Shown one piece after another: positions 637 to 14,782 of a stretch of DNA of 14,820 nucleotides. Position 1 is the stretch's first letter; each line of letters opens with the position of its first letter. Source of the stretch: Planctomycetota bacterium. Its GTDB lineage: Bacteria > Planctomycetota > UBA8108 > UBA1146. The stretch is taken from NCBI GenBank assembly GCA_036338595.1, contig JAYZBV010000101.1, positions 1 to 14,820 on the forward strand, in the 5' to 3' direction. The position numbers and the translations under genes were made by a program. Under the pieces are notes generated by a model, which had not been told where the DNA came from, made no database searches, and worked only from the letters and a program-made list of their open reading frames with translations.

Positions 637-1638
637 TTACGATTTCTTCTGTGAAGCGGCAGCAGTGCCTTCGTGGCGTTCGTAGGCATCGACGATCCGG
701 GTCACGAGGCGGTTTCGCACAATATCGGCCGCCGTCAGATCGACCCAGGAGATCCCCTTCACCGTCCCGAGCACACGTCGAGCGTGGAGCAGGCCCGAAG
801 GCTGGCCCTTCTGAAGATCGAGCTGGGTCGGATCCCCGGTCACGACGATTCGTGATTTCGCCCCCATCCGGGTCAAGAACATCTTCATCTGCGCCGGAGT
901 CGTGTTCTGTGCCTCATCGAGGATGATGAATGCGTGGTTGAGGGTCCTGCCCCTCATGTACGCCAGCGGCACGATCTCGATGATCTCTCGATCGCTGTAT
1001 CGACGCACCTGATCGTAGTCGAGCATCTCGTGCAGTGAGTCGTAGAGAGGCCTCAGATAGGGATTCACCTTCTGCTGGAAGTCCCCCGGCAAGAAACCCA
1101 GTTTCTCGCCCGCCTCGACCGCAGGCCGGCACAGGATCAGTTTTCGTACCTCGCCCGCCTTCAGCGCCTCGACCGCGGCTCGCACGGCGAGATAGGTCTT
1201 GCCGGTTCCCGCAGGACCCAGAGATACGACGATCTCGTTCTGAGCCATCGCTTCCAGGTATCGCACCTGGCCATCGGTTCGGGCGATCCGGGTCAAGTCT
1301 CTCCAGCCCTGACCGTCCTCATCCGAGAACAGTTCTGCAGACCGATTGGTTGCTGCGACGGGCTCATCCGCCCCGGAGCCTCCTCGATGGTGACGGATGG
1401 CTGCGTCCAGTTCTTCTTCCGGCGTGGATTTTCCTGGCTTGCGATGAACTGCCTGCATCCGTTCGACCGCTACCTTTGCAGCGGCCACTCCCACTTCCGA
1501 CCCCTGCAGATCGAGGGATTGGCCCCGCGCCGATGCGACGATATCGAAGCCTTCTCGCATCTGTCTGAGATACATGTCCCGGACGCCGAGCACAGCCTGG
1601 GCTTCCTCGTCATCCTCGAACTCGATCGTTACCTCCAC
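637..1638 (-). CDS. phoH: PhoH family ATPase (YbeZ-like)
   Basis: Walker A GPAGTGKT, RPAVEAGEKLGFLPGD, PLAYMRGRTL, ILDEAQN, VTGDPTQLDL; GTG start with AGAGGA upstream. Confidence 0.96.
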   Translation of the reverse strand: MEVTIEFEDDEEAQAVLGVRDMYLRQMREGFDIVASARGQSLDLQGSEVGVAAAKVAVERMQAVHRKPGKSTPEEELDAAIRHHRGGSGADEPVAATNRSAELFSDEDGQGWRDLTRIARTDGQVRYLEAMAQNEIVVSLGPAGTGKTYLAVRAAVEALKAGEVRKLILCRPAVEAGEKLGFLPGDFQQKVNPYLRPLYDSLHEMLDYDQVRRYSDREIIEIVPLAYMRGRTLNHAFIILDEAQNTTPAQMKMFLTRMGAKSRIVVTGDPTQLDLQKGQPSGLLHARRVLGTVKGISWVDLTAADIVRNRLVTRIVDAYERHEGTAAASQKKS

Positions 1639-1655
1639 GGCTCATCCTCTCCGGA

Positions 1656-2540
1656 TCATGCTGCCAGGACCACGCGCCACCACAATACGAGGGGCATCAC
1701 CAGCACCAGGCTATCGAGCATGTCGAGGGCTCCTCCCAGTCCCGGGATCGAAGCACCCGAGTCCTTGCGGCCCGCACATCTCTTCATCGCAGACTCCTGA
1801 AGATCAGAGATCTGCCCCACCACTGCAACCAGCACCCCGAGTACCAGGGCCATGCCCGCCGAAAAGGTCGGATCGTCCAACTGCACCGCATAAAGGTAAC
1901 CGATGACAGCCGAGGTCAGGACCCCGGCGATCAGCCCCTCGATCGTCTTTCTGGGGCTGACCGGATGCAGCGGTCGCTTTCCGAACCTTCGCCCGATGAA
2001 GTAGGCGCCGGTGTCACTTCCCTTGACCATCAAGACGGTACACAGCACCAGATGAATCCCGACTGGATCCACCTCGGCCAGCACCACGGTGCAAACCATC
2101 GGAATCGACATCCATAGCACCGTCAGGGGCGGGTGCACTCTGGCCCAGAGAAGGTTCTTCTGGCCGCCGCTGAGCGCCGTCGAGACCAGCGCCCCGAGCA
2201 ACAACACGGCTCCGAACAAGGTTGTTGCAGGATTCGCCATCTCGCCAGGCCATGCGACGGATGAATTGAATCCCAATTGGCCCTCACTGGTGGTCAAGAC
2301 CACCCCGTAGAAGGTCACAACGTAGAAGGCGAGGACCCAGAGCAGCCGCCTTTCCCGGCGGAACCCCTGTGGGTGATCCAGCATCGAGAGCGCCTCGTAG
2401 GTGGCTCCGGTACCGAACACCAGGCACAGGATCCACAGCCCGTAACCATCGCTCCAGCCGAGCAAATCTGCGCCCATCAGTGCCACTGCACCGAGCAGAA
2501 TCGGAATTCCCCACAGCAACCTGCTGGCGAGCCCGCTCAC
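1656..2540 (-). CDS. cdsA: Phosphatidate cytidylyltransferase
   Basis: Hydrophobic protein with SDTGAYFIGRRFGK, SPRKTIEG, SDLQESAMKR..GRKDSG..IPGLGGALDMLDS; follows uppS with GTGA overlap. Confidence 0.95.
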   Translation of the reverse strand: MSGLASRLLWGIPILLGAVALMGADLLGWSDGYGLWILCLVFGTGATYEALSMLDHPQGFRRERRLLWVLAFYVVTFYGVVLTTSEGQLGFNSSVAWPGEMANPATTLFGAVLLLGALVSTALSGGQKNLLWARVHPPLTVLWMSIPMVCTVVLAEVDPVGIHLVLCTVLMVKGSDTGAYFIGRRFGKRPLHPVSPRKTIEGLIAGVLTSAVIGYLYAVQLDDPTFSAGMALVLGVLVAVVGQISDLQESAMKRCAGRKDSGASIPGLGGALDMLDSLVLVMPLVLWWRVVLAA

Positions 2541-3322
2541 GCCTCACCTCCGTGGGATCTGGAGGGAACCGATCCGAAACGGCGAGATCTGCGAGAGTAT
2601 TCCTCGAGAGCCAGATCGAGATGCTGGGCATCGAAATCGGGCCACAGAACATCGGTGAAATACAACTCGGCATAGGAGGACTGCCACAGCAAGAAGTTAG
2701 AGAGCCGCATCTCACCCCCGGTGCGGATCAGCAGGTCGAGATCGGTCATCCCCGGTTCATAGAGATGTTCACTGACCTGCCTCTCGCGCTGGCTGAGGGA
2801 GAGATCGACGTCTGCGCTGGCAGCGGAAGAGAGGGCATCGGCGATCTCGGCTCTGCCTCCGTAATTCACGGCAAGCCGGAACACGATACCCTCGTGATGG
2901 GCGGTCTCACGCCGGGCAACGTCGAGTGCCTGCACCACCTCTGGCGGCAATCCGTCGCGACGACCGATGGAGCGAAAACAGACCTGATGCCGATCCATCT
3001 CTTCGCGCTCCTGTTGGAGGTGTTGAACCAGCAACTCGAGCAGAAACTGCACTTCCGGATCGGGTCTGTGGAGCAGGTTTTCGGTCGAGAGCGCGAAGCA
3101 GGTGACCTCCGAGATGCCACGTTCCTTCGCCAATCTGATCATCCTCCGCAGCGACTGGGCACCCTCGGAATGTCCGTGAGTCCGGGGAAGTTGACGCTGC
3201 TGGGCCCAGCGGCCATTTCCATCCATGATGAACCCAATGTGGCGCGGACCCACTTGGCGAGGGTCCACCTCGTCTCCACCTTCAGGTCGCATCGGTAGCC
3301 CGAAATCCCCGGTCGAACTCAA
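2537..3322 (-). CDS. uppS: Undecaprenyl/isoprenyl diphosphate synthase (cis-prenyltransferase)
   Basis: HIGFIMDGNGRWA, GHSEG, FALSTEN, AVNYGGRAEI, DLLIRTGGEMRLSNFLLWQSSYAELYF, RRFG. TTG start overlaps the purA stop (TTGA) with GAGGGGG upstream; alternative ATG at 3292. Confidence 0.96.
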   Translation of the reverse strand: MSSTGDFGLPMRPEGGDEVDPRQVGPRHIGFIMDGNGRWAQQRQLPRTHGHSEGAQSLRRMIRLAKERGISEVTCFALSTENLLHRPDPEVQFLLELLVQHLQQEREEMDRHQVCFRSIGRRDGLPPEVVQALDVARRETAHHEGIVFRLAVNYGGRAEIADALSSAASADVDLSLSQRERQVSEHLYEPGMTDLDLLIRTGGEMRLSNFLLWQSSYAELYFTDVLWPDFDAQHLDLALEEYSRRSRRFGSVPSRSHGGEA

Positions 3323-4593
3323 GCGAGTTCCCCCTCTGCCCTGAACGGCTCAAAGACACAGACCTCGTCGCGACGGCGACCGGTCGACAGGATCGAGACG
3401 GGGATCCCGGTCGCCTGCCTCAGGCGATCGATGAAGGGTCGCATCGAGACTTCATCCACCTGAGACCAGCCAGGCCACTGTTCGATCACGGGCTCGAGGC
3501 CCTCCAGATCCGTCAGCGAATCGGGAAACTGATCCAGTGTCTCGCCATCGAGACGATAAGCCGTGACGACAGGAATCGTCTCCCAACCGTCGAGCACGTC
3601 CGCCTTGGTGAGTGCGAAGGAGTCGAGGTCATTGAGATCCACGGCGAAGCGAAGCGCCGGGATGTCGAGCCAGCCGACTCTCCTGGGGCGACCGGTCGTG
3701 GTCCCGAATTCCCCCCCTGCCTCACGCAACGCCTCGGCTTCTTCACCGTGAATCTCGGAGGGAAAGGGCCCCTCTCCCACTCGGGTGCAGTACGCCTTGG
3801 TGACTCCGACCACATGATCGACCTTGCGTGGAGAGAATCCTGTTCCCGGCCCCAGGCCGAGAAAGGAGGGGCTCGATGAGGTGACAAAGGGGTAAGTACC
3901 AAAATCGATGTCGAGCATGCATCCCTGGGCTCCCTCGAAGAGCAACTTCTTTCCCTGCTGATGCATCTTGTGCAGCAGTTGACGCGTGTCGGTCACCTGC
4001 GATTCGAGTCGGTCCTTCAATCGATGACAGATCTGGATCGCCTCATCGATTCCTTCACCGGGGATGCCGAGTCGTTGCGTACGTTCACGCAGCTTCTCGG
4101 GCAGGACATCTTCAATGAATCCGGGAGTCATGATGTCTCCCATCCGAATCCCGTCACGACCGAACTTGTCCTGATATGCAGGACCGATACCTCGGAGCGT
4201 GGTTCCGATCGGATGAGCAGCACTCTGTTCACGAATTTTCTCTACCGCTTGGTGATGTGGCAGCACAACGTGAGCTCTATCGGAGATCCTGATCCTGGAA
4301 ACCGCTTCCTCCGGGAGTGACTCGACTTCATCGAGCAACTTGTGAGGTTCGAGTACCATGCCGTTACCGAGAACCGCCAGGATCCCGTCGTGCAAGACTC
4401 CCATCGGCAGATGATGGAGGACATGGCGTACTTCACCGATATACACGGTGTGGCCGGCGTTGGCCCCTCCCTGGTAGCGAACGACGGCATCGGCATCACT
4501 CGCCAACACATCCACGATCTTACCCTTGCCCTCGTCACCCCAGTTCAATCCCACAACGCAGACATGCTGCATCTGCTTCTCCAGTTCTGTCAT
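3319..4593 (-). CDS. purA: Adenylosuccinate synthetase
   Basis: WGDEGKGK, GGANAGHT, IGTTLRGIGPAYQDK, FEGAQG, GTYPFVTSS, TRVGEGPFP, EFGTTTGRPRRVGWLD; ATGA overlap with serS. Confidence 0.98.
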   Translation of the reverse strand: MTELEKQMQHVCVVGLNWGDEGKGKIVDVLASDADAVVRYQGGANAGHTVYIGEVRHVLHHLPMGVLHDGILAVLGNGMVLEPHKLLDEVESLPEEAVSRIRISDRAHVVLPHHQAVEKIREQSAAHPIGTTLRGIGPAYQDKFGRDGIRMGDIMTPGFIEDVLPEKLRERTQRLGIPGEGIDEAIQICHRLKDRLESQVTDTRQLLHKMHQQGKKLLFEGAQGCMLDIDFGTYPFVTSSSPSFLGLGPGTGFSPRKVDHVVGVTKAYCTRVGEGPFPSEIHGEEAEALREAGGEFGTTTGRPRRVGWLDIPALRFAVDLNDLDSFALTKADVLDGWETIPVVTAYRLDGETLDQFPDSLTDLEGLEPVIEQWPGWSQVDEVSMRPFIDRLRQATGIPVSILSTGRRRDEVCVFEPFRAEGELA

Positions 4594-5876
4594 TTTGAGC
4601 CATCTTCTTTCGTCGGAATCATCTCGGTCAGTCCACCCATGTATGGCACGAGCACCTCGGGGATCTTCACTGATCCATCGGCTCGCTGGTTATTTTCAAG
4701 TATCGCAATCAGCACCCGTGGCGTGGCGATGGCAGTGTTGTTGAGCGTGTGGCAGAAATGGACCTTGCCATCCTCGCCTCGATATCGCAGGTCCATCCTG
4801 CGTGCCTGGTAACTGTGGAAACGGGAAGCAGAGTGCGTCTCGCCCCAGCCACGCGATGGCATCCACGCCTCGATATCAAACTTCCTCACCTGGCCAACTC
4901 CCAGATCGCCAGTACAGACATCGACCACCCTGTAGGGAATCTCCATCGCCTGAAGAATCTCCTCGGCATTATTCCTGATGAACTCGTGATGCTGGATCGA
5001 TTCCTCGATGTCGTTCTTGCAGATGATCACCTGCTCGACCTTGTTGAACTGGTGAATCCTGTACAGCCCGCGTGTCTCTTTCCCTGCAGCACCCGCCTCT
5101 CGACGGTAGCAGGTTGACCAACCGGCATAGCGAATCGGCAGCTGTGACTCCTCCAGTACCTCACCGCTGTGGAATGCAGTGACCGGAACCTCGCTGGTTC
5201 CGGTCAGGAACAGGTTGTCGCGCGGGATCTCGTAAGTTTGTTCCTCACCCCCCGGAAAATACGCGGTGCCATAGAGAGGTTCGTACTTGACCATCGTCGG
5301 CACCATCATCGGAGTGAACCCACGCTCCACCACATGGTCGAGAGCAAAGCGCAGCACTGCGAGTTCGAGCAGAGCACCGGCCCCCTTGAGGATGTAGGTC
5401 TGTGAACCGGCGAGTTTAGATGCTCTCGCAAAGTCAACGATGTCGAGAGCCTGGCCCAGTTCGACATGGTCCTTATGCTCGAACTCGAATTCAGTCGGGG
5501 TCCCGACCACCTTCAGTTCGACATTGTCACCGTCATCCTTGCCGACGGGTACCTCGGGGTCTGCCGGCATCGGAACTCTCGACTGGATGTCCTGGAGTTC
5601 ATCCAGCACCGCCCGCAACTGATCTCCAAGGATCTTGATCTTGTCCGAGACTTCGCCCATGCGCCCGATCGCCTGCTGTTTCGCATCCCCTTCCAGGGAA
5701 GCGATTTCCTTGCCAGCATTCTTCTGGTCATGGCGTAGCTGTTCCTGCTCCGTGAGCAGTTGCTTGCGTTCGTCATCGAGGTGGACCAGTCGGTCGAGAT
5801 TGACCTCGACACGCTTATCGAGAGCTCCCTGGCGAACCAGTTCCAGTTCGGACCGGATGTACTTGATGTCGAGCAT
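4590..5876 (-). CDS. serS: Serine--tRNA ligase
   Basis: MLDIKYIR N-terminus with coiled-coil arm, GTSEVP, CYRREAG, RGLYRIHQFNKVEQ, KFDIEAWMP, HTLNNT; SD GGAGG. Confidence 0.98.
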   Translation of the reverse strand: MLDIKYIRSELELVRQGALDKRVEVNLDRLVHLDDERKQLLTEQEQLRHDQKNAGKEIASLEGDAKQQAIGRMGEVSDKIKILGDQLRAVLDELQDIQSRVPMPADPEVPVGKDDGDNVELKVVGTPTEFEFEHKDHVELGQALDIVDFARASKLAGSQTYILKGAGALLELAVLRFALDHVVERGFTPMMVPTMVKYEPLYGTAYFPGGEEQTYEIPRDNLFLTGTSEVPVTAFHSGEVLEESQLPIRYAGWSTCYRREAGAAGKETRGLYRIHQFNKVEQVIICKNDIEESIQHHEFIRNNAEEILQAMEIPYRVVDVCTGDLGVGQVRKFDIEAWMPSRGWGETHSASRFHSYQARRMDLRYRGEDGKVHFCHTLNNTAIATPRVLIAILENNQRADGSVKIPEVLVPYMGGLTEMIPTKEDGSK

Positions 5877-5936
5877 CGGATCGCCTCCGGAGATGTGCTC
5901 GATATCCGCCCCCGGATTCGAGACTCCCGCCGGGCG

Positions 5937-5965
5937 AGGATAGACCCGTATCCCTCTCGCTTCAA
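5937..5965 (-). promoter_or_regulatory. Predicted sigma70-type promoter for the serS-purA-uppS-cdsA-phoH operon
   Basis: Minus strand TTGAAG-17 nt-TATCCT, about 60 nt upstream of the serS ATG. Confidence 0.6.
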
Positions 5966-5975
5966 TCGAGGCAGG

Positions 5976-7715
5976 TCAGGGAGTATCAGATAGTAGAGTC
6001 GCCACCTTGACGATTTCGAGCTGCACCTGGCACCAGCGGGCGATCTCGATCGCCGCCTCCTGCTGGAGGTCCTGGTCGTGCTCATCGGCCCCGATCAGGG
6101 CAGGAAGTAGCAATTCACGCGCTCGAGCGGGGTCGCCTGCCAGCGCCAGATCTCTCGCCCCTTGCAGGGCGGTGGCGAGCCTCTGGCGGGCGATCCGCTG
6201 CGCCAGGATCTCGAGTTTCCCCTCCAGCGTCGCCAGCACCTCATTCCTGGCCAACTCGAGATCGGACCGGGTCACTGGCAATCCCTCACGAGACAGATCG
6301 GAGGGAGCCACCGCCCGCTGGACCTCGATGGTCTGCTCGACCCGCCTTCCCATCTCATCGATCACCACGACGGGCAGGGTGCCGTGGATCACCCAGCTTT
6401 CACTGTTTCGTGGCGGCAGTTGTTCACTCCAGACGGTTCTCCAGCGTCGGGCAGGACTCCGTTCCAACCGACGAGACAGGCGCATTGCTTCCGCCAGGCG
6501 AAAAGAACGGCGCGATGAGAGCAGCAGAGCCTCGACCGGCGTCGCAGGAATCCAGCGGTGGGTGAGGTCGACGATCTCGCCGATCAACTGCTTCCACCGC
6601 TTCACATCGGCAAAGTGAGCGGGAGATCGACTCCAGACACGACCGTTTTCGCCCATCTTCGGCCTCGAACTGAGGGCCCCGATCGAACCCACCGTGGTGA
6701 CGGTCGCCACTCCCGGCCTGAGGATGAGTTGACGCCCATCCTCGATCGAGCTGCGAAGAGCACCTCGGATCACGACTGGCCGAAGAGGAATCTCGATTCT
6801 GGATCTCAGCAGCCCGAGGCGATCGCCGATCGGCTCGCCCGCTTCCAGCAAGATGGCCATCTTCAGCAGGGCTCCGCACGGCTGACCCGTAGCGAGAAGA
6901 GATTCTGCGTCGTCTCGAAGTTGTTGCAGTGCCCACCGGCCAGCAGCCCTGGAAGCAGGATCTTCTGCATCGATGGCACCGAGCAGTCGTGTCGCTGTCA
7001 GCACTGCGCAGGGGTCCTTACGTTGTTGGCCCTCACGGATGTCTGCCTTGATCTGCTCGAGGACGCCGTGACGCATCACGGCAACATATCGATCGAGCAA
7101 TGCATCATCTGGCAAACGCTGTAACAACGGTTCGAGGATCTTGATCGCCTCGACCGCATGGCCCTCCAGATAATGCTGCTGGGCGCTGCGGAGCACCTGA
7201 TCGCAAGATTCTCGCAATTCGATCCTGCGCCGCCAGTGGCTCAGAACCCGTTCGTGATGGCGCGGAGTTTCGATCCCTGCTGCGATGCAGGCGATGGGAA
7301 TTCGCTGCAATCGGGGAAACAGTTCCCGCATCTCTCTCGAACCATGAGGTCGCTCTGCACAGGCGAGTCGGTCGCGAAGATGTCGCCAAGCTCGATCCCG
7401 AACCTGATCGATCACCGGCTGACCACCAGGCTCTGGATGCAGCGGTGTGACAAATCTGCGCAGAGGAACTTGCAGCGCCAGCATCTCGAGGAAAGCATCT
7501 TCCCATCGAGCCTGCTCGAGGGAGTGGGTGGCCGCTTCGATGCGCTCGAGGTCGATGACACCCAACCTGGATTGCGGTGAGTCGGCATGAGTGCTGGAGC
7601 CTTCTCCATGCAGCACCACCACTCCTGTGGTGAGCAGAACCGTGGCGATGATGGTCGAATAGAACTTCAGGAATCGCACGACCGTGTTCCTCATCTGGAG
7701 AGGCTGCCGGGGCAT
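5976..7715 (-). CDS. Hypothetical exported or membrane-anchored alpha-helical protein with TPR-like segments
   Basis: Long ORF filling the ribD-serS gap in the same orientation as its neighbours; N-terminal hydrophobic stretch (FYSTIIATVLLTTGVVVL). Start uncertain (7772, 7715 or 7694). Confidence 0.75.
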   Translation of the reverse strand: MPRQPLQMRNTVVRFLKFYSTIIATVLLTTGVVVLHGEGSSTHADSPQSRLGVIDLERIEAATHSLEQARWEDAFLEMLALQVPLRRFVTPLHPEPGGQPVIDQVRDRAWRHLRDRLACAERPHGSREMRELFPRLQRIPIACIAAGIETPRHHERVLSHWRRRIELRESCDQVLRSAQQHYLEGHAVEAIKILEPLLQRLPDDALLDRYVAVMRHGVLEQIKADIREGQQRKDPCAVLTATRLLGAIDAEDPASRAAGRWALQQLRDDAESLLATGQPCGALLKMAILLEAGEPIGDRLGLLRSRIEIPLRPVVIRGALRSSIEDGRQLILRPGVATVTTVGSIGALSSRPKMGENGRVWSRSPAHFADVKRWKQLIGEIVDLTHRWIPATPVEALLLSSRRSFRLAEAMRLSRRLERSPARRWRTVWSEQLPPRNSESWVIHGTLPVVVIDEMGRRVEQTIEVQRAVAPSDLSREGLPVTRSDLELARNEVLATLEGKLEILAQRIARQRLATALQGARDLALAGDPARARELLLPALIGADEHDQDLQQEAAIEIARWCQVQLEIVKVATLLSDTP

Positions 7716-7733
7716 CCGGGAACCCCGATAATT

Positions 7734-7760
7734 CCTGGATCCGGACACACCGGATCCAGG
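7734..7760. repeat. Perfect 11-bp inverted repeat (hairpin)
   Basis: CCTGGATCCGG-acaca-CCGGATCCAGG between the ribD stop and the next gene; no U-tract on either side. Confidence 0.8.
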
Positions 7761-7802
7761 TAAGCCTATCATCCAGAAGGAGATATGGTCCTGGAGAGGC
7801 GT

Positions 7803-8936
7803 CTAGAGGGAGGCCTCGCCGAGCCCCTCGGCAGTGAGCGTAGCCTCCAGGACCCGATCATCGCCCGATTCGCGCCACTGCGGTTGATGCAACTCGATCG
7901 CCTCCTGCATCTTCGAGATGCCATCACCGCCGGTCGGCCCCGGGGCTGCGCGTCCACCGACCAGTTTCGGCGCGATGAGGATCTGGACCCGATCGATCAA
8001 CCGGGCATCGATGAATCGGCCATGGGTCTCACTACCACCCTCGACCAGAAGATGCTGGATCCCGCGGCCGGCGAGATCTTCCAGCAACACCTTCAGCGGC
8101 ATCCTGTCCTCCTCGAGCGGGAGCCCGATCAGTTGTGCTCCGGCACTTCGCAGTGCGGACGCTGGCTCTCCCTCCAGCTGATCCTGATGACAGAAGATGA
8201 GCGCCCCCCCGGGTTCCTTCAGCAGGGATGCCCCCGGGGGTGTCCGGCAACTGGAATCGATGACGATCCGCACCGGTTCGGGTTGGTCATCGACACGGCT
8301 GGTCAGTTGGGGATCATCCTGGAGCACCGTCTCGACTCCGACCAGGATCGCATCGATCAGCCCCCTCGCCTCTCGCGTGGCTGCTCTCGTCAGATCACTG
8401 GTGATCCATCGAGAATCTCCTCCGACGCAGGCGATCTTACCGTCCGCAGTCATCGCCCACTTGGCTGTAACGAGTGGTCGGCCATTTCGAATCCTGCACA
8501 GATAGGGAGCCGCCAGATAGCGCCCCTCTTGCACCATGAAATCTCTGACCACTTCGATCCCAGCAGCCTCGAGTTTCTGGTAGCCGACACCCGATGTGAC
8601 CGGGTTTGGATCGTCGACCGCCACGATCACGCGCCCGATCCCTGCCGCAATGATGGACTCGACACAGGGTGGTGTCTTGCCCTGATGACCACAGGGTTCG
8701 AGGGTGACATAGAGATCCGCTCCAGCGCCATCGAGTCCGGCCCGACGAGCCATCGCCAGGCAATTGACCTCGGCGTGAGCATCTCCGTAGGCCTGATGCC
8801 ATCCCTCAGCTGTTCCAGCAGCGCAGACCAGCACCGCACCGACAGCTGGATTGGGAGAGACTCTACCGAGTCCTCGCCTCGCCACCTCCAGCGCTCGTTG
8901 CATCTGCCTGGGGTCGGGGTCGGCTCTGGTCATCAC
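7803..8936 (-). CDS. ribD: Bifunctional riboflavin biosynthesis deaminase/reductase
   Basis: SPNPAVGAV, HAE, TLEPCGHQGKTPPC (Zn deaminase); KWAMTADGK, SRWIT, DDPQLT, LVEGG (reductase). Start GTG 8936 or ATG 8933, both overlapping the miaB stop. Confidence 0.97.
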   Translation of the reverse strand: MMTRADPDPRQMQRALEVARRGLGRVSPNPAVGAVLVCAAGTAEGWHQAYGDAHAEVNCLAMARRAGLDGAGADLYVTLEPCGHQGKTPPCVESIIAAGIGRVIVAVDDPNPVTSGVGYQKLEAAGIEVVRDFMVQEGRYLAAPYLCRIRNGRPLVTAKWAMTADGKIACVGGDSRWITSDLTRAATREARGLIDAILVGVETVLQDDPQLTSRVDDQPEPVRIVIDSSCRTPPGASLLKEPGGALIFCHQDQLEGEPASALRSAGAQLIGLPLEEDRMPLKVLLEDLAGRGIQHLLVEGGSETHGRFIDARLIDRVQILIAPKLVGGRAAPGPTGGDGISKMQEAIELHQPQWRESGDDRVLEATLTAEGLGEASL

Positions 8937-10324
8937 TTCGAGGTCTGTAGCGTCGGCCGCTGCGAGGGTCTGGTGGCTCGCTGGCCGTACAGGGTTGCCG
9001 CAGAAGCGCGGTCCACATCGACAGCGACGAATGAACCCGCCTCTTCGTCATCTTGCGCATCCCAGATGACGGTGCGGTGGTCCCCTGCCCGACCCGCCCA
9101 ACGACTCTCATCGAGGCGAGACGGACCCTCCGCAAGTACCTCTACCCTTCTGCCGATGAAACGCTGGTTGCGGCTCTCTGCCTCTGCTGAGACTGCCGCC
9201 AGCAACTGGTGATTACGCTGCTTCTTTACATCGAGCGGGATGTCATCTGACATCCTGGCATCGCTGACGGTCCCTGGCCGAGGAGAATATTGAAAAACAT
9301 AGCTAGGATCGAATCCGACCTCGGTGACGAGGGAGAGACTCTGATCAAACTCCTCCTGAGTCTCTCCGGGAAAGCCGACGATGAAATCGGTTGCGAGGGT
9401 GATATCGGGAATCTGCGTCCTCAACCGATCGATGACATGCAAGTAAAAGGAGCGGTCATAGGTTCGCTTCATCCTTGCCAGCATCGAGTCGCTGCCCGAT
9501 TGAACGGGCAGATGCAGGTAATCCATCACCTTGGTGCATTCCGCCATCGCCTGGATCAACTTTGGCCTCAGGAATCTTGGATGCGAGGTGATGAAATGAC
9601 ACCGCTCGATGCCATCGATCTCCTCGACACCACGTAACAGGGTATCTAGCCCCACTCCCCGCCCGAGCCTCTTGCCGTAGGAGTTGACCGTCTGGCCCAG
9701 GAATGTGATCTCCTTGACCCCGGCATCGGCGAGACGCCGGACTTCATCGAGGATCTCATCGGGGGACCTGGAGACTTCCTTGCCTCGGGTGGTGGGAACG
9801 ATGCAGTAGGTGCAAACCATGTCACAACCTCGCATCACCGAAACAAACGCGTGCCACCGATTGGGTCCCAGATTTCTCTGGCGCACAAATTCAAGAGGCG
9901 AATCCATGTCCGTCGCCAGCAGCGTACTGCTCTGTCCCCTCGCCTCCTCGATCAACTCGGGCAGTCGATCAAACTCCCGCGTGCCGACGATGAGGTCGAT
10001 CCAGGGGGCTCTTTGAGACAACTGATCCTGCTTGTGCTGAGCCACACATCCTGTCAGACCGATGATCAGTTCAGGCTCCTGCTGCTTTCTCTTCTTGAAA
10101 CTGGTCATTCGCATGACAGCACGCTCCTCGGCGTGTTCCCGAACCGAGCAGGTGTTGTACAGAATCACTCCGGCATCATCCGGATCATGGACCAGGAAGT
10201 AGCCCTTCCTCTTGAGACCCTCGAGCATCAACTCGGCATCGAGTTTGTTCATCTGACAGCCGAACACCTCGAAGTAGACACGATGTGACCTGGGTACATC
10301 TGCGGAGATGGGAGCGGTCTGCAT
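8933..10324 (-). CDS. miaB: tRNA-2-methylthio-N6-dimethylallyladenosine synthase (radical SAM methylthiotransferase)
   Basis: FGCQMN, NTCSVREHAE, TGCVAQ, CDMVCTYC radical SAM motif, TSHP, HLPVQSGSD, TDFIVGFPGET, YSPRPGT, C-terminal TRAM. The ORF-track start 10462 lies upstream of the predicted promoter; likely start is ATG 10324 or TTG 10342 (GGAGG just upstream). Confidence 0.95.
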   Translation of the reverse strand: MQTAPISADVPRSHRVYFEVFGCQMNKLDAELMLEGLKRKGYFLVHDPDDAGVILYNTCSVREHAEERAVMRMTSFKKRKQQEPELIIGLTGCVAQHKQDQLSQRAPWIDLIVGTREFDRLPELIEEARGQSSTLLATDMDSPLEFVRQRNLGPNRWHAFVSVMRGCDMVCTYCIVPTTRGKEVSRSPDEILDEVRRLADAGVKEITFLGQTVNSYGKRLGRGVGLDTLLRGVEEIDGIERCHFITSHPRFLRPKLIQAMAECTKVMDYLHLPVQSGSDSMLARMKRTYDRSFYLHVIDRLRTQIPDITLATDFIVGFPGETQEEFDQSLSLVTEVGFDPSYVFQYSPRPGTVSDARMSDDIPLDVKKQRNHQLLAAVSAEAESRNQRFIGRRVEVLAEGPSRLDESRWAGRAGDHRTVIWDAQDDEEAGSFVAVDVDRASAATLYGQRATRPSQRPTLQTSK

Positions 10325-10382
10325 CGGATAGGTCAGTTTCAATGATCCTCCATCGCTCGAAGAGGTGTTCTGTGCGACCCGG

Positions 10383-10411
10383 ATGGTAGGAACACCGATC
10401 CCACGGGTCAA
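10383..10411 (-). promoter_or_regulatory. Predicted sigma70-type promoter for miaB-ribD
   Basis: Minus strand TTGACC-17 nt-TACCAT in the gap between the UbiB-family gene and miaB. Confidence 0.7.
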
Positions 10412-10446
10412 CAGGACCGGTTGCACTGGAGGGAACTTCCGGGTGC

Positions 10447-12075
10447 CTAGCGACCCGCCCACGGCGACAGAAAGCCGACCAGCAGGCGCACAATCAGCGC
10501 TGAGGCACCACAGAGCGCCAGGATGGCGAGCCAGTAGTGATCGGTGACATAAAGCAGGGTGGCACAGATCAACGCAGCGGCTGCGATCACCGATTCCACG
10601 ACCCTGCGGTTGGAGCCGTCGACTCGCCGAATCAGCCGATCGAGCCCGACGATCTCCGACTCGACCCGCAACCTGCCTCGAGTCGCCTTGCGAAGCGCGT
10701 CGGACATCAACTCCGGTAGATCAGCCAGCATTTCGATGTTGTCGATGGTCTGATCCGCGGTGCGGCGAAGCAGGTTCTCGGGGCCGATTTTCTCTTTCAT
10801 CAGATCGATCAGCAGCGGTTCCAACTCACTCGCAGTATCAAATCCTGGATCCAGTTTTTCCGTCAGACCTTCGAGAAGAACCAGCGATCGAGTCATGCGA
10901 ACAAATCCAGGCGCAATTTCGATTCTGTGTTCCGTGGCGATATCGATGATGCACTTGAGCAGCGCTGGAAGATCCACCTCGGAAAGTTTCAGACCAATAT
11001 ATGGATCGAGGCGATTGGCAATCGACTGAGTGAGAGAAAATGTGTCTGCATCTCCGTGACAGTAGCCGACATGAAGGACCTGATGGGCGAGTTCCTCATA
11101 GTTCCTGCTCACCAGCGCCTTCAACATCCTCGACAGCCTATGTCGTAGTTCTTCGGTGAGGAGGCCCGTGAGACCGAAGTCGATCCAGGCAATCCTACCG
11201 TCACGGGCCACGATGATATTCGATGGGTGGGGATCGCCATGAAACTGACCATGCAGGAAGATCATCTGGAACAGCGATCGGGCGACGATCTGCGCCACTC
11301 TACGCCCTTCGGTGGTACTCAGTTCAGCACGCCCCACCGAGACTCCATCCACCCAGTCCATGACCAGCACCTCACGGCTCGATACTGCCGCATGGGTACC
11401 TGGAATCAGCACGTCCTCGTCTCCCTCGAAGGAGGCCCTGATTCGATCGATGGCATTTCTCTCGAAGTTGAAGTTGATCTCGTTCGCGAGCGCCAGTCTC
11501 AGTTCATTGACCACGCCCTGGGGATCGAAGCCGCCCGACTCGGGGTGCTTGGCCAGTGCCTCGGCAAATAGATCGAGCAAACCCATATCCTGCTCGATCA
11601 ACTTCTCGATTCCCGGCTTTCTGACCTTGATCGCCACGCGGTGGCCATCGAGTGTCATACCGCGGTATACCTGTGCGATCGACGCGCTGGCGACCGGTTG
11701 TTCCTCGATCTGAGCAAAGCAACTGGAGAGTTCTTTACCCAGAGATTGCTCGATCACCTGGCGAACCTCTTCGAATGGAATCGGATCCACATCGTCACGC
11801 AGTCGCTCCAGTTCCTTGACCAGAACTTCCGGAAAGACATCGGGTCGACTGGCAATCAATTGCCCCAGTTTGATATAGAGAGGGCCCAGATCCTGAAGTG
11901 CAAATCTGAGTCGTCGAGGAAACGAGTTCTCGGACCGAGCAGATCCACCGAGCAGGCGCACTCGAACACCGGCCCCCAGGCGAGATGCCAGGTCTCCCAG
12001 CCCATGTCGTGCCAGGATCAGGGATACATCCTTGAGTCTGGGGATATTTCGGAGAGTGCGAAGGGGTGTCACCAC
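10447..12075 (-). CDS. UbiB/AarF/ABC1 family atypical kinase
   Basis: LGPLYIKLGQ (KxGQ), ASASIAQV A-rich loop, VAIKV, FHGDPHPSN, IDFG, two C-terminal TM helices; SD AGGAG overlaps the upstream stop. Confidence 0.93.
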   Translation of the reverse strand: MVTPLRTLRNIPRLKDVSLILARHGLGDLASRLGAGVRVRLLGGSARSENSFPRRLRFALQDLGPLYIKLGQLIASRPDVFPEVLVKELERLRDDVDPIPFEEVRQVIEQSLGKELSSCFAQIEEQPVASASIAQVYRGMTLDGHRVAIKVRKPGIEKLIEQDMGLLDLFAEALAKHPESGGFDPQGVVNELRLALANEINFNFERNAIDRIRASFEGDEDVLIPGTHAAVSSREVLVMDWVDGVSVGRAELSTTEGRRVAQIVARSLFQMIFLHGQFHGDPHPSNIIVARDGRIAWIDFGLTGLLTEELRHRLSRMLKALVSRNYEELAHQVLHVGYCHGDADTFSLTQSIANRLDPYIGLKLSEVDLPALLKCIIDIATEHRIEIAPGFVRMTRSLVLLEGLTEKLDPGFDTASELEPLLIDLMKEKIGPENLLRRTADQTIDNIEMLADLPELMSDALRKATRGRLRVESEIVGLDRLIRRVDGSNRRVVESVIAAAALICATLLYVTDHYWLAILALCGASALIVRLLVGFLSPWAGR

Positions 12076-12485: not shown

Positions 12486-12522
12486 AAAAAAATAGGGAGT
12501 CCGTTGAGATTCAACGGACTCC
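12486..12522 (-). terminator. Rho-independent terminator
   Basis: Minus strand GGAGTCCGTTGA-atc-TCAACGGACTCC (perfect 12-bp stem), then CTA and T7. Confidence 0.88.
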
Positions 12523-12567
12523 GCGGGAAAGGGGGGGAGTGCAGATTGTGGAGGAGATTCTCCTCAC
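12486..12567 (-). ncRNA. Candidate sigma54-dependent small regulatory RNA (~82 nt) with C/U-rich tract
   Basis: Promoter, 5' hairpin (GAGGAG-aat-CTCCTC), unpaired ACTCCCCCCCTTTCCCGC and terminator are contiguous, with no ORF inside. No Rfam family recognised. Confidence 0.65.
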
Positions 12568-12576
12568 ATTAGCACT

Positions 12577-12593
12577 GGCAATCGACGGGCCAA
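12577..12593 (-). promoter_or_regulatory. Predicted sigma54 (RpoN) -24/-12 promoter
   Basis: Minus strand TTGGCCCGTCGATTGCC versus consensus TGGCACG-N4-TTGC: GG at 12591-12590, GC at 12579-12578, exactly 10 nt apart. Predicted +1 near 12566-12567. Confidence 0.72.
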
Positions 12594-12773
12594 TCGGCGC
12601 TGATTCTGGAAATTGGCCCTAAGAACCACATGGAAGTCAGGTTACACCACTCGGTCCGATCGCCGCTGCACCCCGCTAGCGCGGCAACGGTTTCCGACCC
12701 GGAAGCAATGCCATGACTCGATTCCCGAGCGTCCTGGATGGCACCCGATGAGAGTCCGGCGAGGAGTGGAGCA

Positions 12774-13853
12774 TCAACCTGAGGAGATCACCCGGCCCAG
12801 TGCCTCGAGTGCAGGCCGCAACTGATCTGGCGCCAATCCGAAGCCGATCCGGACATGGTCACGGGCACCGAAGAAGCGTCCTGGCGTCAGATTGACACCC
12901 TGTTCGATACAGAGTTTCTGAAAGCCGTCCCCGTCGGTTCCGAGATGCTCAGGGACTCTCGGAAAGCAGACCAGCCCGCCCGCAGGCTCCACCACCTCGA
13001 TGGCTTGATGCTGCAACCAGTCGCGCATGATCTCCCATCCATCGCAGGCGATGCGCCGACCTCTGGCTCGCAGAGGCTGCCACTTCTTCATCGCAGCCCT
13101 CGCCACCTGGTCGGTCAGGCACGAGTTGTGCAAGGTCGTGGAATCGAGAACCCGTCGAGCTCGATCGACCAGCTGGGGCGTCGCTAATCCCCAGCCAAAG
13201 CGAACCTGAGAAACACCGTGAACCTTGTTGAGCCCACCGATGCTGACGATGGATGGGTGACGAAGTGAAAGCGGTCCAGGGTCCGGATCGAGGAAGGGTC
13301 GGTACATCTCATCGACGATGACATGGAACCCGTGGTCTTCTGCCAGCGCTGCAATGCCCAGTTCCTCCTCCAGAGAGAGTCTGACACCGCTCGGATTGTG
13401 CAGGTTGGTCAGCAGCAGCAGGGCAGGCTGGTGCTCTTCGAGCGTCCTGGCGAGCGCCTCCAGATCGATCCTGTATCCCTGCTCGAAGTGACGCTCGAAG
13501 GGCACCGTCTTGACGCCCACAACCGACAGCGCATCGACGACGGGAAGATAACCGGGAATCTCATGCACGACCGTCTCGCCTGGCCTCGCCAGAGCAGCAC
13601 CGAAACAAAAATGAGAATGCGAGGCGCTGGAGGCGAGCAGGATGCCATCGGGATCGATCCCCCACAGCTTCTCGATCTCAGCCATCACCTCCGTCGGCCC
13701 ATAGGGAGTGAACTCGAACAGTTCCAGGTGCGCCGGGTCGAGTCCGATGTCCTCCCAGTCGACGGGAGGGACGGCACTCATCGTCAGGAGATGTCGTCCG
13801 AGTTGTCCTTCGGATTTTGCCCATCGGATGTAGGGAACCGTTGAGATTGCCAT
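12774..13853 (-). CDS. Class I/II PLP-dependent aminotransferase-like enzyme
   Basis: TNLHNPSG, IVDEMY, GGLNKVHGVSQVRFGW (PLP lysine region), PGRFFG..HVRIGFG. Start placed at ATG 13853 after the strong SD GGAGGAGG rather than at 14006. Confidence 0.9.
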   Translation of the reverse strand: MAISTVPYIRWAKSEGQLGRHLLTMSAVPPVDWEDIGLDPAHLELFEFTPYGPTEVMAEIEKLWGIDPDGILLASSASHSHFCFGAALARPGETVVHEIPGYLPVVDALSVVGVKTVPFERHFEQGYRIDLEALARTLEEHQPALLLLTNLHNPSGVRLSLEEELGIAALAEDHGFHVIVDEMYRPFLDPDPGPLSLRHPSIVSIGGLNKVHGVSQVRFGWGLATPQLVDRARRVLDSTTLHNSCLTDQVARAAMKKWQPLRARGRRIACDGWEIMRDWLQHQAIEVVEPAGGLVCFPRVPEHLGTDGDGFQKLCIEQGVNLTPGRFFGARDHVRIGFGLAPDQLRPALEALGRVISSG

Positions 13854-14782
13854 TCTTCCTCCTCCATCTGACGCAGTCGCCTCCTCCGACGGGTGCTCTG
13901 AACCACTGCCGCAATGATGACCAGTAATGCGAGCCCCTTCCAGGACAGGATCAGGTCCACGATCAGACCCAGGTACACATCGGACCGTGCCAGCTCCTGC
14001 GACCACATGCTCGTCGCATCGTCGATGCTGAGTCCGGTCTCCAGCTCGAATCCTTGCTGCCAGGGTGTTCCGTCTCTACAGCGAGCAAGAATCCGCTTGT
14101 GCAATTGATGATCAAAGTTACGGCGAGTCCACTCGATGAAGGAACACGCCTCGGCGTAGAGCAGCGAGGCCCTGACATGGGTTTTCGGTAGATACTGGTC
14201 GAGGTCGGTGATGGGAACCAGAGCGATTCCCCTCGCCTGCAGGATCAGATTTCTTCGGGTCGGTGGATCCGGAAGTTGATGTGCTGCTGACTGTGCAATG
14301 CCCTCGTGGACCCAGCGCGGCAACGCCCCTGCCGCCTCTTCCAGTACCAGATGAGCCAGTTCATGGACCACCGTGGCACTGCCAGCGGCCGGATTGGCTG
14401 CCATGTACTGGATGTCGATGATCACGATGCCCTTGCGAGTCAGGGCCACTGCGGGAACCCAACCGGGTACCGGATCGCTACCGTAATGCGCCAGAGTACG
14501 GTTGAGGGCAGCATTGGACACGACCAGCACCACCAGTGGCTTGCGTTGCGAGCGCGAACCGAGCCAGTTGCGCAGATGTTGCAGATTATTCTCGACCAGC
14601 GCGGAGAGAGTATCGGGAGGCAGTCCCGTTCCCGGAGCGATCGCCCAGTCGAAGGCGATTCCGGGGATGTGCTGGAAGCCAGCTGGCGGCTCGTCTGCCG
14701 CTACCGTGGGGCTCAGAGCCAGCACCAGGATCGTCACCAGGATCCAGCTCCAGTTTTTCTGTGACGATGCAGCCGGGACCAC
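13784..14782 (-). CDS. Peptidase MA-like (gluzincin) zinc metallopeptidase with signal peptide and C-terminal membrane anchor
   Basis: VVHELAH followed by LPRWVHEGIAQ (HEXXH...E), LLYAEA; N-terminal WILVTILVLALSPTVAA; C-terminal TM then RRRRR. The frame stays open to the window edge, so the start is uncertain. Confidence 0.85.
   Translation of the reverse strand: MVPAASSQKNWSWILVTILVLALSPTVAADEPPAGFQHIPGIAFDWAIAPGTGLPPDTLSALVENNLQHLRNWLGSRSQRKPLVVLVVSNAALNRTLAHYGSDPVPGWVPAVALTRKGIVIIDIQYMAANPAAGSATVVHELAHLVLEEAAGALPRWVHEGIAQSAAHQLPDPPTRRNLILQARGIALVPITDLDQYLPKTHVRASLLYAEACSFIEWTRRNFDHQLHKRILARCRDGTPWQQGFELETGLSIDDATSMWSQELARSDVYLGLIVDLILSWKGLALLVIIAAVVQSTRRRRRLRQMEEEEWQSQRFPTSDGQNPKDNSDDIS

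Follow-up and report, generated by a model that had tools for sequence, protein, structure and literature searches.

The window analysed here is a 14,820-nt stretch of contig JAYZBV010000101.1 (assembly GCA_036338595.1, Planctomycetota bacterium), and all positions are counted from its start. A run of housekeeping genes lies on the minus strand at 637-12075 and 13784-14782. These genes encode PhoH, a CDP-transferase, UppS, PurA, SerS, RibD, a MiaB-like radical SAM protein, a UbiB-like kinase and a peptidase MA, and the run also holds a 598-amino-acid open reading frame (5976-7772) with no Pfam family. A cassette predicted to encode a small RNA (sRNA) was identified between an aminotransferase gene and a phasin-like open reading frame. 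The features of this interval, in the direction of minus-strand transcription, are as follows.

12774-13853, minus strand: aminotransferase, class I/II PLP (PF00155, E = 2.5e-34); upstream neighbour, outside the sRNA unit
12683-12712, minus strand: imperfect palindrome lying some 105 bp upstream of the -24 GG; likely sigma54-activator site (UAS)
12619-12645, minus strand: conserved TAA...TT element within an AT-richer stretch
12578-12593, minus strand: sigma54-type -24/-12 box, with GG at 12591-12590 and GC at 12579-12578
12486-12567, minus strand: predicted sRNA of about 82 nt (77-110 nt in relatives), its transcription being a prediction
12548-12567, minus strand: 5' hairpin with one bulged C, whose sequence and length vary; begins at the predicted transcription start
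12547-12541, minus strand: single-stranded linker 5' of the C-tract
12540-12523, minus strand: unpaired C-tract, with an invariant core (12537-12523) that is the predicted pairing site
12486-12522, minus strand: intrinsic terminator with a 12-bp stem (12522-12496), a 3-nt loop and T7 (12492-12486)
12441-12433, minus strand: -10-like element of the phasin-like gene, read by eye
12399-12085, minus strand: phasin-like open reading frame, the downstream neighbour, ahead of a ubiB-like kinase gene

A preliminary description of this DNA had placed a sigma54 box, a hairpin, a C-tract and a terminator on the minus strand, and all four lie where it put them. The box is one mismatch away from the sigma54 consensus, in agreement with that description. 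The perfect 12-bp stem followed by T7 is present in both its parts, but three bases separate the stem from the T7; 10 of the 12 terminator pairs are kept across the family. The hairpin reported at the expected +1 is likewise present, although canonical numbering from the -12 element gives +1 at 12566 and not at 12567, the position from which the hairpin-start analyses were numbered. The interval had also been said to contain no open reading frame. This holds for the minus-strand frames, which have stops or lack a start, whereas plus-strand and read-through open reading frame calls overlap the interval mechanically. The lengths of the sRNA homologues differ by non-multiples of three.

The 82-nt sRNA folds at -30.0 kcal/mol into two hairpins, and the linker and C-tract are about 80-90% or more unpaired. 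In 26 of 28 family copies the 5' hairpin has its first paired base between +1 and +3, and the per-copy z-scores of this hairpin are modest (-3.4 to +1.1). The terminator stem is paired in 100% of cells across the family, and at the order level two-sided changes occur at 6 of 10 pairs in a model-fitted alignment that includes four reverse-strand stem matches. The stem (12496-12522) is also kept in sequence, with 7 of 10 pairs invariant across 25 copies. The terminator loop measures 3-7 nt in the sRNA copies, with the seed on the 5' side of the stem. A C-tract is not a general feature of terminators in the source genome, where just 4 of 73 are preceded by a C5 run at a distance of 30 nt or less. 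Further terminators that follow C-rich or anti-Shine-Dalgarno (anti-SD)-like tracts were seen in this genome (G000) on C71 (minus strand, about 31340), C111 (plus strand, about 50344) and C65 (plus strand, about 5975), and these mark possible further 3'-UTR RNAs.

Taken alone, the sigma54 box is weak evidence of a promoter, because its looser form, TGGC-N7-TTGC, is common (194 occurrences in the source genome); GG-N10-GC is found at 0.6% of positions. The box at this locus stands above chance because neither GG nor GC varies in any of the 25 aligned family copies and both keep a fixed distance to the RNA start; the intervening bases drift. GG-N10-GC is carried by all 33 order-level sRNA copies and by 13 of 13 metagenome copies. 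Further upstream, a CGG half-site lies 103-105 nt 5' of the GG in 23 of 25 copies, and a TAA-type motif lies 52-58 nt 5' of the GG, also in 23 of 25, with its AA and a downstream T forming invariant columns. Two of three strict palindrome patterns match this locus alone among the intergenic sites of the source genome. The TAA...TT element may be an IHF-like bending site, and its position together with that of the CGG half-site gives the layout that would be expected of a bending site plus an activator site. No recurrence of the palindrome was seen before the other predicted sigma54 boxes of the source genome, and no activator was pinned down. The presence of rpoN, proposed earlier as a check, was established in the source genome and in all 34 genomes of the order, most of which contain two full-length rpoN paralogs. 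A search of the source genome for activator domains gave 13 strong matches, and the neighbour annotation places no activator gene adjacent to the sRNA locus.

The sRNA element was detected by blastn in 24 of 24 genomes of the same family. A covariance model built from 25 sRNA copies matches 28 of 28 family genomes and five of six further genomes of the order. The promoter and the C-tract, whose conservation in relatives had been suggested as another check, are both kept. All three features, GG-N10-GC, C-rich tract and terminator, recur in the five order-level copies, four of which precede the phasin-like gene. The sRNA is absent from G028, which has no covariance-model match and no copy before its phasin-like gene. 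Two orthologs with a changed seed were found (L099:1903-2008 in G030 and L097:4021-4158 in G029), and the porin site described below is lost or displaced in both genomes. Among 16 genomes outside the family, blastn did not find the element, and its one match (G039) is to DNA upstream of it. The covariance model gave two matches (G050 and G052) among 25 genomes of the class outside the order, and one extra match (G089) in a 151-genome sample of the phylum; the former were dropped as terminator only and the latter as lying within a coding region. Second matches in G024 and G013 were dropped on inspection. Of the 29 pattern loci, 7 were examined, and L046 and L058 were dropped for having neither box nor terminator. 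As judged by sequence conservation, the copies form a real, order-wide sRNA family with no convincing match outside the order.

The preliminary description recognized no described family for this RNA. The window and six related loci were compared with Rfam 15 (McaS and the other 4,226 models), and nothing reached the gathering threshold. The nearest candidate, McaS/IsrA (RF00115), scored 27.2 bits against a gathering score of 42 and was rejected; the likeness is that of the terminator stem, the alignment takes the promoter as RNA, and homologous loci have no McaS match. FuFi-1 and mir-2774, with sub-threshold Rfam scores, were also rejected. No description of this RNA was found in a literature search whose coverage excluded subscription journals and preprint supplements, and the family is apparently undescribed so far. 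The 34 genomes of the order, 22 of which are 90% complete or better, yielded no Hfq in a search whose control was detected in 5 of 14 known genomes. The source genome, which is 88% complete, yielded neither CsrA nor ProQ, and no KhpA/B-type protein over the cut-off.

In most genomes, the aminotransferase gene, the element and the phasin-like gene follow one another on one strand. G001 and G007 have the entire cassette in inverted orientation, flanked by the same two genes, and the aminotransferase gene is thus convergent to the sRNA. Because it is inverted as a block in two genomes, the cassette is a unit of its own. G029 shows no aminotransferase match upstream of the sRNA. The -10-like element, read by eye, stays with the phasin-like gene when the sRNA cassette inverts. 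The phasin-like open reading frame itself belongs to no Pfam or NCBIfam family, and an Atlas search gave a lead to phasin clusters at 0.86 only. A stand-alone sigma54-dependent sRNA gene is very probably what the cassette represents. One RNA run, with a 0.14 share of words, gave five scattered contigs of a relative at depth 4-8, and six further runs were empty at the sRNA locus. One RNA-library contig at the locus, from a relative, unstranded and at a depth of about 4, spans 12553-12794 and reaches 14 nt across the predicted start. This contig ends in adapter and shows no 5' end, and the five contigs cover neither the seed nor the terminator. The start-crossing contig fits DNA carry-over or read-through.

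Candidate targets were sought among the leaders of the source genome, for which about 2,270 genes were called by a simple script on which the start sites rest. In these leaders a G-rich stretch, the SD zone, lies at about -14 to -8. The best of 2,250 leaders for contiguous pairing with the seed is that of the gene G000:C80:3305-4696 (minus strand), which forms 16 pairs from -23 to -8 at G000:C80:4704-4719 on the minus strand. Its pairing energy is -33.9 kcal/mol, and the runner-up among the 2,250 leaders reaches -26.9 kcal/mol. This leader ranks fourth when bulges and an accessibility term are included, and second by hybrid energy. Shuffled seeds reach at least 16 pairs in 2-4% of 300 trials, so the source genome alone only suggests this target, which was chosen after the fact.

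The product of G000:C80:3305-4696 is a predicted outer-membrane channel, here called the porin. The structure predicted for it has 18 beta-strands (pTM 0.77), and its top fold matches are AlgE and the Campylobacter MOMP (E about 1e-14 to 1e-13). An apparent signal peptide was read by eye, a weak Alginate_exp match was obtained, and sequence comparison with solved structures gave no match. Of the 34 genomes of the order, 33 carry the porin gene. At the porin loci (L137 and L170-L203), a conserved sigma70-like promoter was noted by eye some 130 nt upstream, and the G-run of the leader varies from 4 to 8.

In genera g1, g5 and g7, every one of 22 genomes has a porin leader that can form 10-16 contiguous pairs with its cognate seed. 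These 22 are the genomes, of 23 in the three genera, that have the leader; G020 was dropped because its copy is without the 5' end. They represent few independent events, because just three genera are involved. The pairing reaches -8, but it reaches -10 in genera g5 and g7. In an alignment of 21 leaders (G002 was missed by the pattern), 14-21 of 21 leaders agree over the paired block, compared with 7-16 of 21 upstream of the block. The porin proteins of these three genera are about 60-79% identical to that of the source genome. The site pattern occurs before an ATG 1-8 times per genome in the same genera, with a sole match in G014 and G023. A GGGG/CCCC hairpin of the leader's own is predicted in three of four leaders folded and could explain part of the conservation of the leader.

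Complementarity is weaker in the deeper lineages, where three of nine genomes (G016, G009 and G025) reach 9 pairs and six of nine have 7 or fewer. In G010, G011 and G013 the seed is kept and a good porin site is absent. G025 carries one swapped pair, changed in both the RNA and the leader, and G027 is mismatched at the same position. G028, which is without the sRNA, is also without a site in its porin leader, a single case that fits the pairing. Where the porin G-run is down to 4, the C-run of the sRNA still measures 7-8, which makes further targets or roles likely. A MoxR ATPase gene, ranked second in the source genome, was rejected as a target since just 5 of 22 genomes show at least 10 pairs; as a control in the deeper lineages it reaches 9 pairs in one of five. 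The phasin-like gene was also rejected, with a variable match of 9 pairs or fewer and at least 10 pairs in 0 of 30 leaders. Of 20 other recurring sites that were retrieved, some come back within one genus or in genomes here and there, and none was seen in all three genera. A 13-base intergenic complement of the seed was also noticed on the plus strand at about G000:C33:10065-10080, between divergent genes and about 120 nt upstream of a helicase-like open reading frame. The earlier proposal of a trans-acting translational regulator has thereby gained a named candidate target whose complementarity is conserved in sequence.

In the source genome, the covariance model has its second match in the 3' UTR of an actin-like gene of the MamK family, whose product scores 392.7 bits against the MamK-family profile (cut-off 400).

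G000:C113:91694-93640, minus strand: two-gene MamK-like operon with the actin-like gene last (loci L088 and L106-L135)

The sRNA and this 3' UTR have a 15-mer in common, which is found in two copies in the genome, each just 5' of a terminator. A sigma54-type box lies upstream of the MamK-like operon in 20 of 20 genomes examined. The 3' UTR forms 16 paired bases with the porin leader in the source genome. The lengths of the porin G-run and of the C-run of this sibling seed are 7 and 7 in six genomes, 8 and 6 in one, 5 and 5 in two, 4 and 4 in two, and 4 and 3 in two. In genus g7 the 3' UTR does not fit the porin, and none of seven genomes reaches 9 pairs. The matching run lengths in three clades support, at the level of sequence, the porin leader as a real pairing site. 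Release of the 3' UTR as an RNA from the MamK-like operon is putative only. The source genome also contains a second, more distant actin-like paralog (G000:C33:45364-46359), and the MamK-like match has one in-frame TAG near its end in L125 (G023) and L126 (G014).

The porin ribosome-binding site is likely silenced by the sRNA, because the C-rich tract of the latter matches it. A signal would activate an enhancer-binding protein, which would bind the palindrome and switch on the promoter, and the sigma54 polymerase would then make the short RNA. The 5' hairpin and the terminator would guard this RNA and hold its seed open. The open C-tract would form a long G:C helix over the porin leader from -23 to -8, block the 30S subunit and lower the amount of porin. 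We consider it likely that the sigma54-dependent sRNA represses porin translation in this manner, through its C-tract on the G-rich ribosome-binding site, probably without Hfq. The conserved cassette, its independence from the neighbouring genes, the 16-bp complementarity and the conservation of the site are read directly from the genomes; transcription of the RNA, its pairing in cells and the sign of the regulation are what the model predicts. The 3' UTR of the MamK-like operon, as another RNA that has this seed, would act on the same porin site. An extended version, in which the two sigma54-driven RNAs converge without Hfq on the porin ribosome-binding site and the co-evolving lengths of C-run and G-run set the strength of repression, is put forward tentatively, as a possibility rather than as our expectation.

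Several other explanations were weighed against repression of the porin. The RNA may be a real sigma54-dependent trans-acting sRNA that serves as a broad anti-SD regulator, with the porin as one late-acquired target. In this sense, 11 of 2,250 leaders pair with the seed at -20 kcal/mol or below, the figure for coding windows being 1 of 2,231; G010, G011 and G013 retain the seed despite a weak porin site; and the tract of G030 resembles a plain anti-SD. The leaders are G-rich in any case, however, none of the 20 other recurring sites extends to all three genera, and the MoxR and phasin-like sites are unconserved, which makes a broad regulator unlikely. Activation or stabilization of the porin mRNA, by opening of the GGGG/CCCC hairpin close to the start codon, would agree with the hairpin predicted in most of the leaders folded and with RepG, which passes from repression to activation depending on how long the G-repeat is, according to the available text of PMC8295292. 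It is judged improbable, since the duplex from -23 to -8 (-10 in g5 and g7) takes in the SD zone at about -14 to -8.

An sRNA that acts as a decoy for a C-tract-binding protein, which would also bind the MamK-like 3' UTR and leave the porin match incidental, appears slightly less probable still. The same 15-mer stands 5' of two terminators and the terminator stem is conserved in sequence (7 of 10 pairs invariant in 25 copies); the 88%-complete source genome yielded none of CsrA, ProQ and Hfq, nor a KhpA/B-type protein over the cut-off, and the C-run of the 3' UTR tracks the porin G-run as pairing predicts. Least probable of all is that no separate RNA exists and that the element either terminates a long aminotransferase 3' UTR or serves the phasin-ubiB genes as an attenuator leader. 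The common gene order on one strand and the contig across the predicted start would suit this explanation, and so would the ability of the nascent RNA to pair part of the tract with the 5' arm of the terminator, and of a read-through RNA to pair the tract with the SD of the phasin-like gene. Against it, the cassette is inverted relative to both genes in G001 and G007, G029 is without the upstream aminotransferase gene, and the promoter elements are conserved at fixed spacing. The phasin-like gene moreover keeps its own -10-like element, and the match to its SD is unconserved.

Little is known of small RNAs in the PVC superphylum, and one review table lists eight annotated sRNA families for this entire group (PMC9029176, in the part available). 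An order-wide family is now described with a promoter, a seed and a specific target candidate. If repression of the porin is true, it would be the first predicted sRNA-target pair of the phylum in the literature searched. Together with the MamK-like operon, it would tie an actin-like cytoskeleton to outer-membrane permeability and point to a circuit of envelope remodelling under sigma54 in Planctomycetota. Co-evolution of sRNA and target becomes testable through the sibling seed and the matched run lengths.

Porins are repressed by MicF, MicC, MicA, RybB and OmrA/B, which depend on Hfq and are transcribed under sigma70 or sigmaE. The predicted outcome described here is similar, namely a blocked ribosome-binding site on the mRNA of an outer-membrane beta-barrel. 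In contrast to the Mic-type regulators, the sRNA has a sigma54-type box, and Hfq was not found in the genomes of the order. This combination suggests that porin control by an sRNA may have arisen independently under sigma54, without Hfq and by means of a long C:G helix.

Qrr, GlmY and CrcZ are likewise stand-alone sRNAs behind sigma54 promoters. The Rfam comparison gave no match to the Pxr, Qrr, GlmY or CrcZ families. Pxr of Myxococcus is also about 100 nt long and stands alone behind a sigma54 promoter, but it is described in the available part of PMC5568312 with three stem-loops and beside the activator gene nla19, whereas the present sRNA has two stems and an aminotransferase gene upstream. 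FlmE (CJnc230) of Campylobacter jejuni is RpoN-dependent and has two stem-loops around a single-stranded anti-SD stretch, and it derives from the 3' end of an RpoN-dependent mRNA, as the MamK-like sibling would here (PMC11187230, available text). According to the same text, FlmE is processed from the flgE mRNA and has flagellar targets, whereas the sRNA described here has its own promoter box and terminator. By Rfam score or by architecture, the sRNA is outside all of the families compared.

RepG of Helicobacter pylori and CJnc190 of C. jejuni repress leaders that are G-rich or contain a variable G-repeat by means of a C/U-rich single-stranded seed, and C. jejuni contains neither Hfq nor ProQ, as far as the available text of PMC8295292 and PMC8687705 goes. 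An unpaired C/U-rich seed, a G-rich ribosome-binding region and a host in which Hfq was not found are common to these systems and the present one, where the complementarity holds in three genera and is weak deeper in the order. In the available text of the same papers, the seeds of RepG and CJnc190 lie in loops (the terminator loop in RepG) and neither RNA is described as sigma54-driven, whereas the present seed lies between two hairpins behind a sigma54-type box; the targets also differ. The preliminary description had compared the C-tract with the seeds of Firmicute sRNAs. RepG and CJnc190 of the Hfq-less epsilonproteobacteria would by analogy be closer functional analogues than the Firmicute RsaE/RoxS, FsrA and RNAIII.
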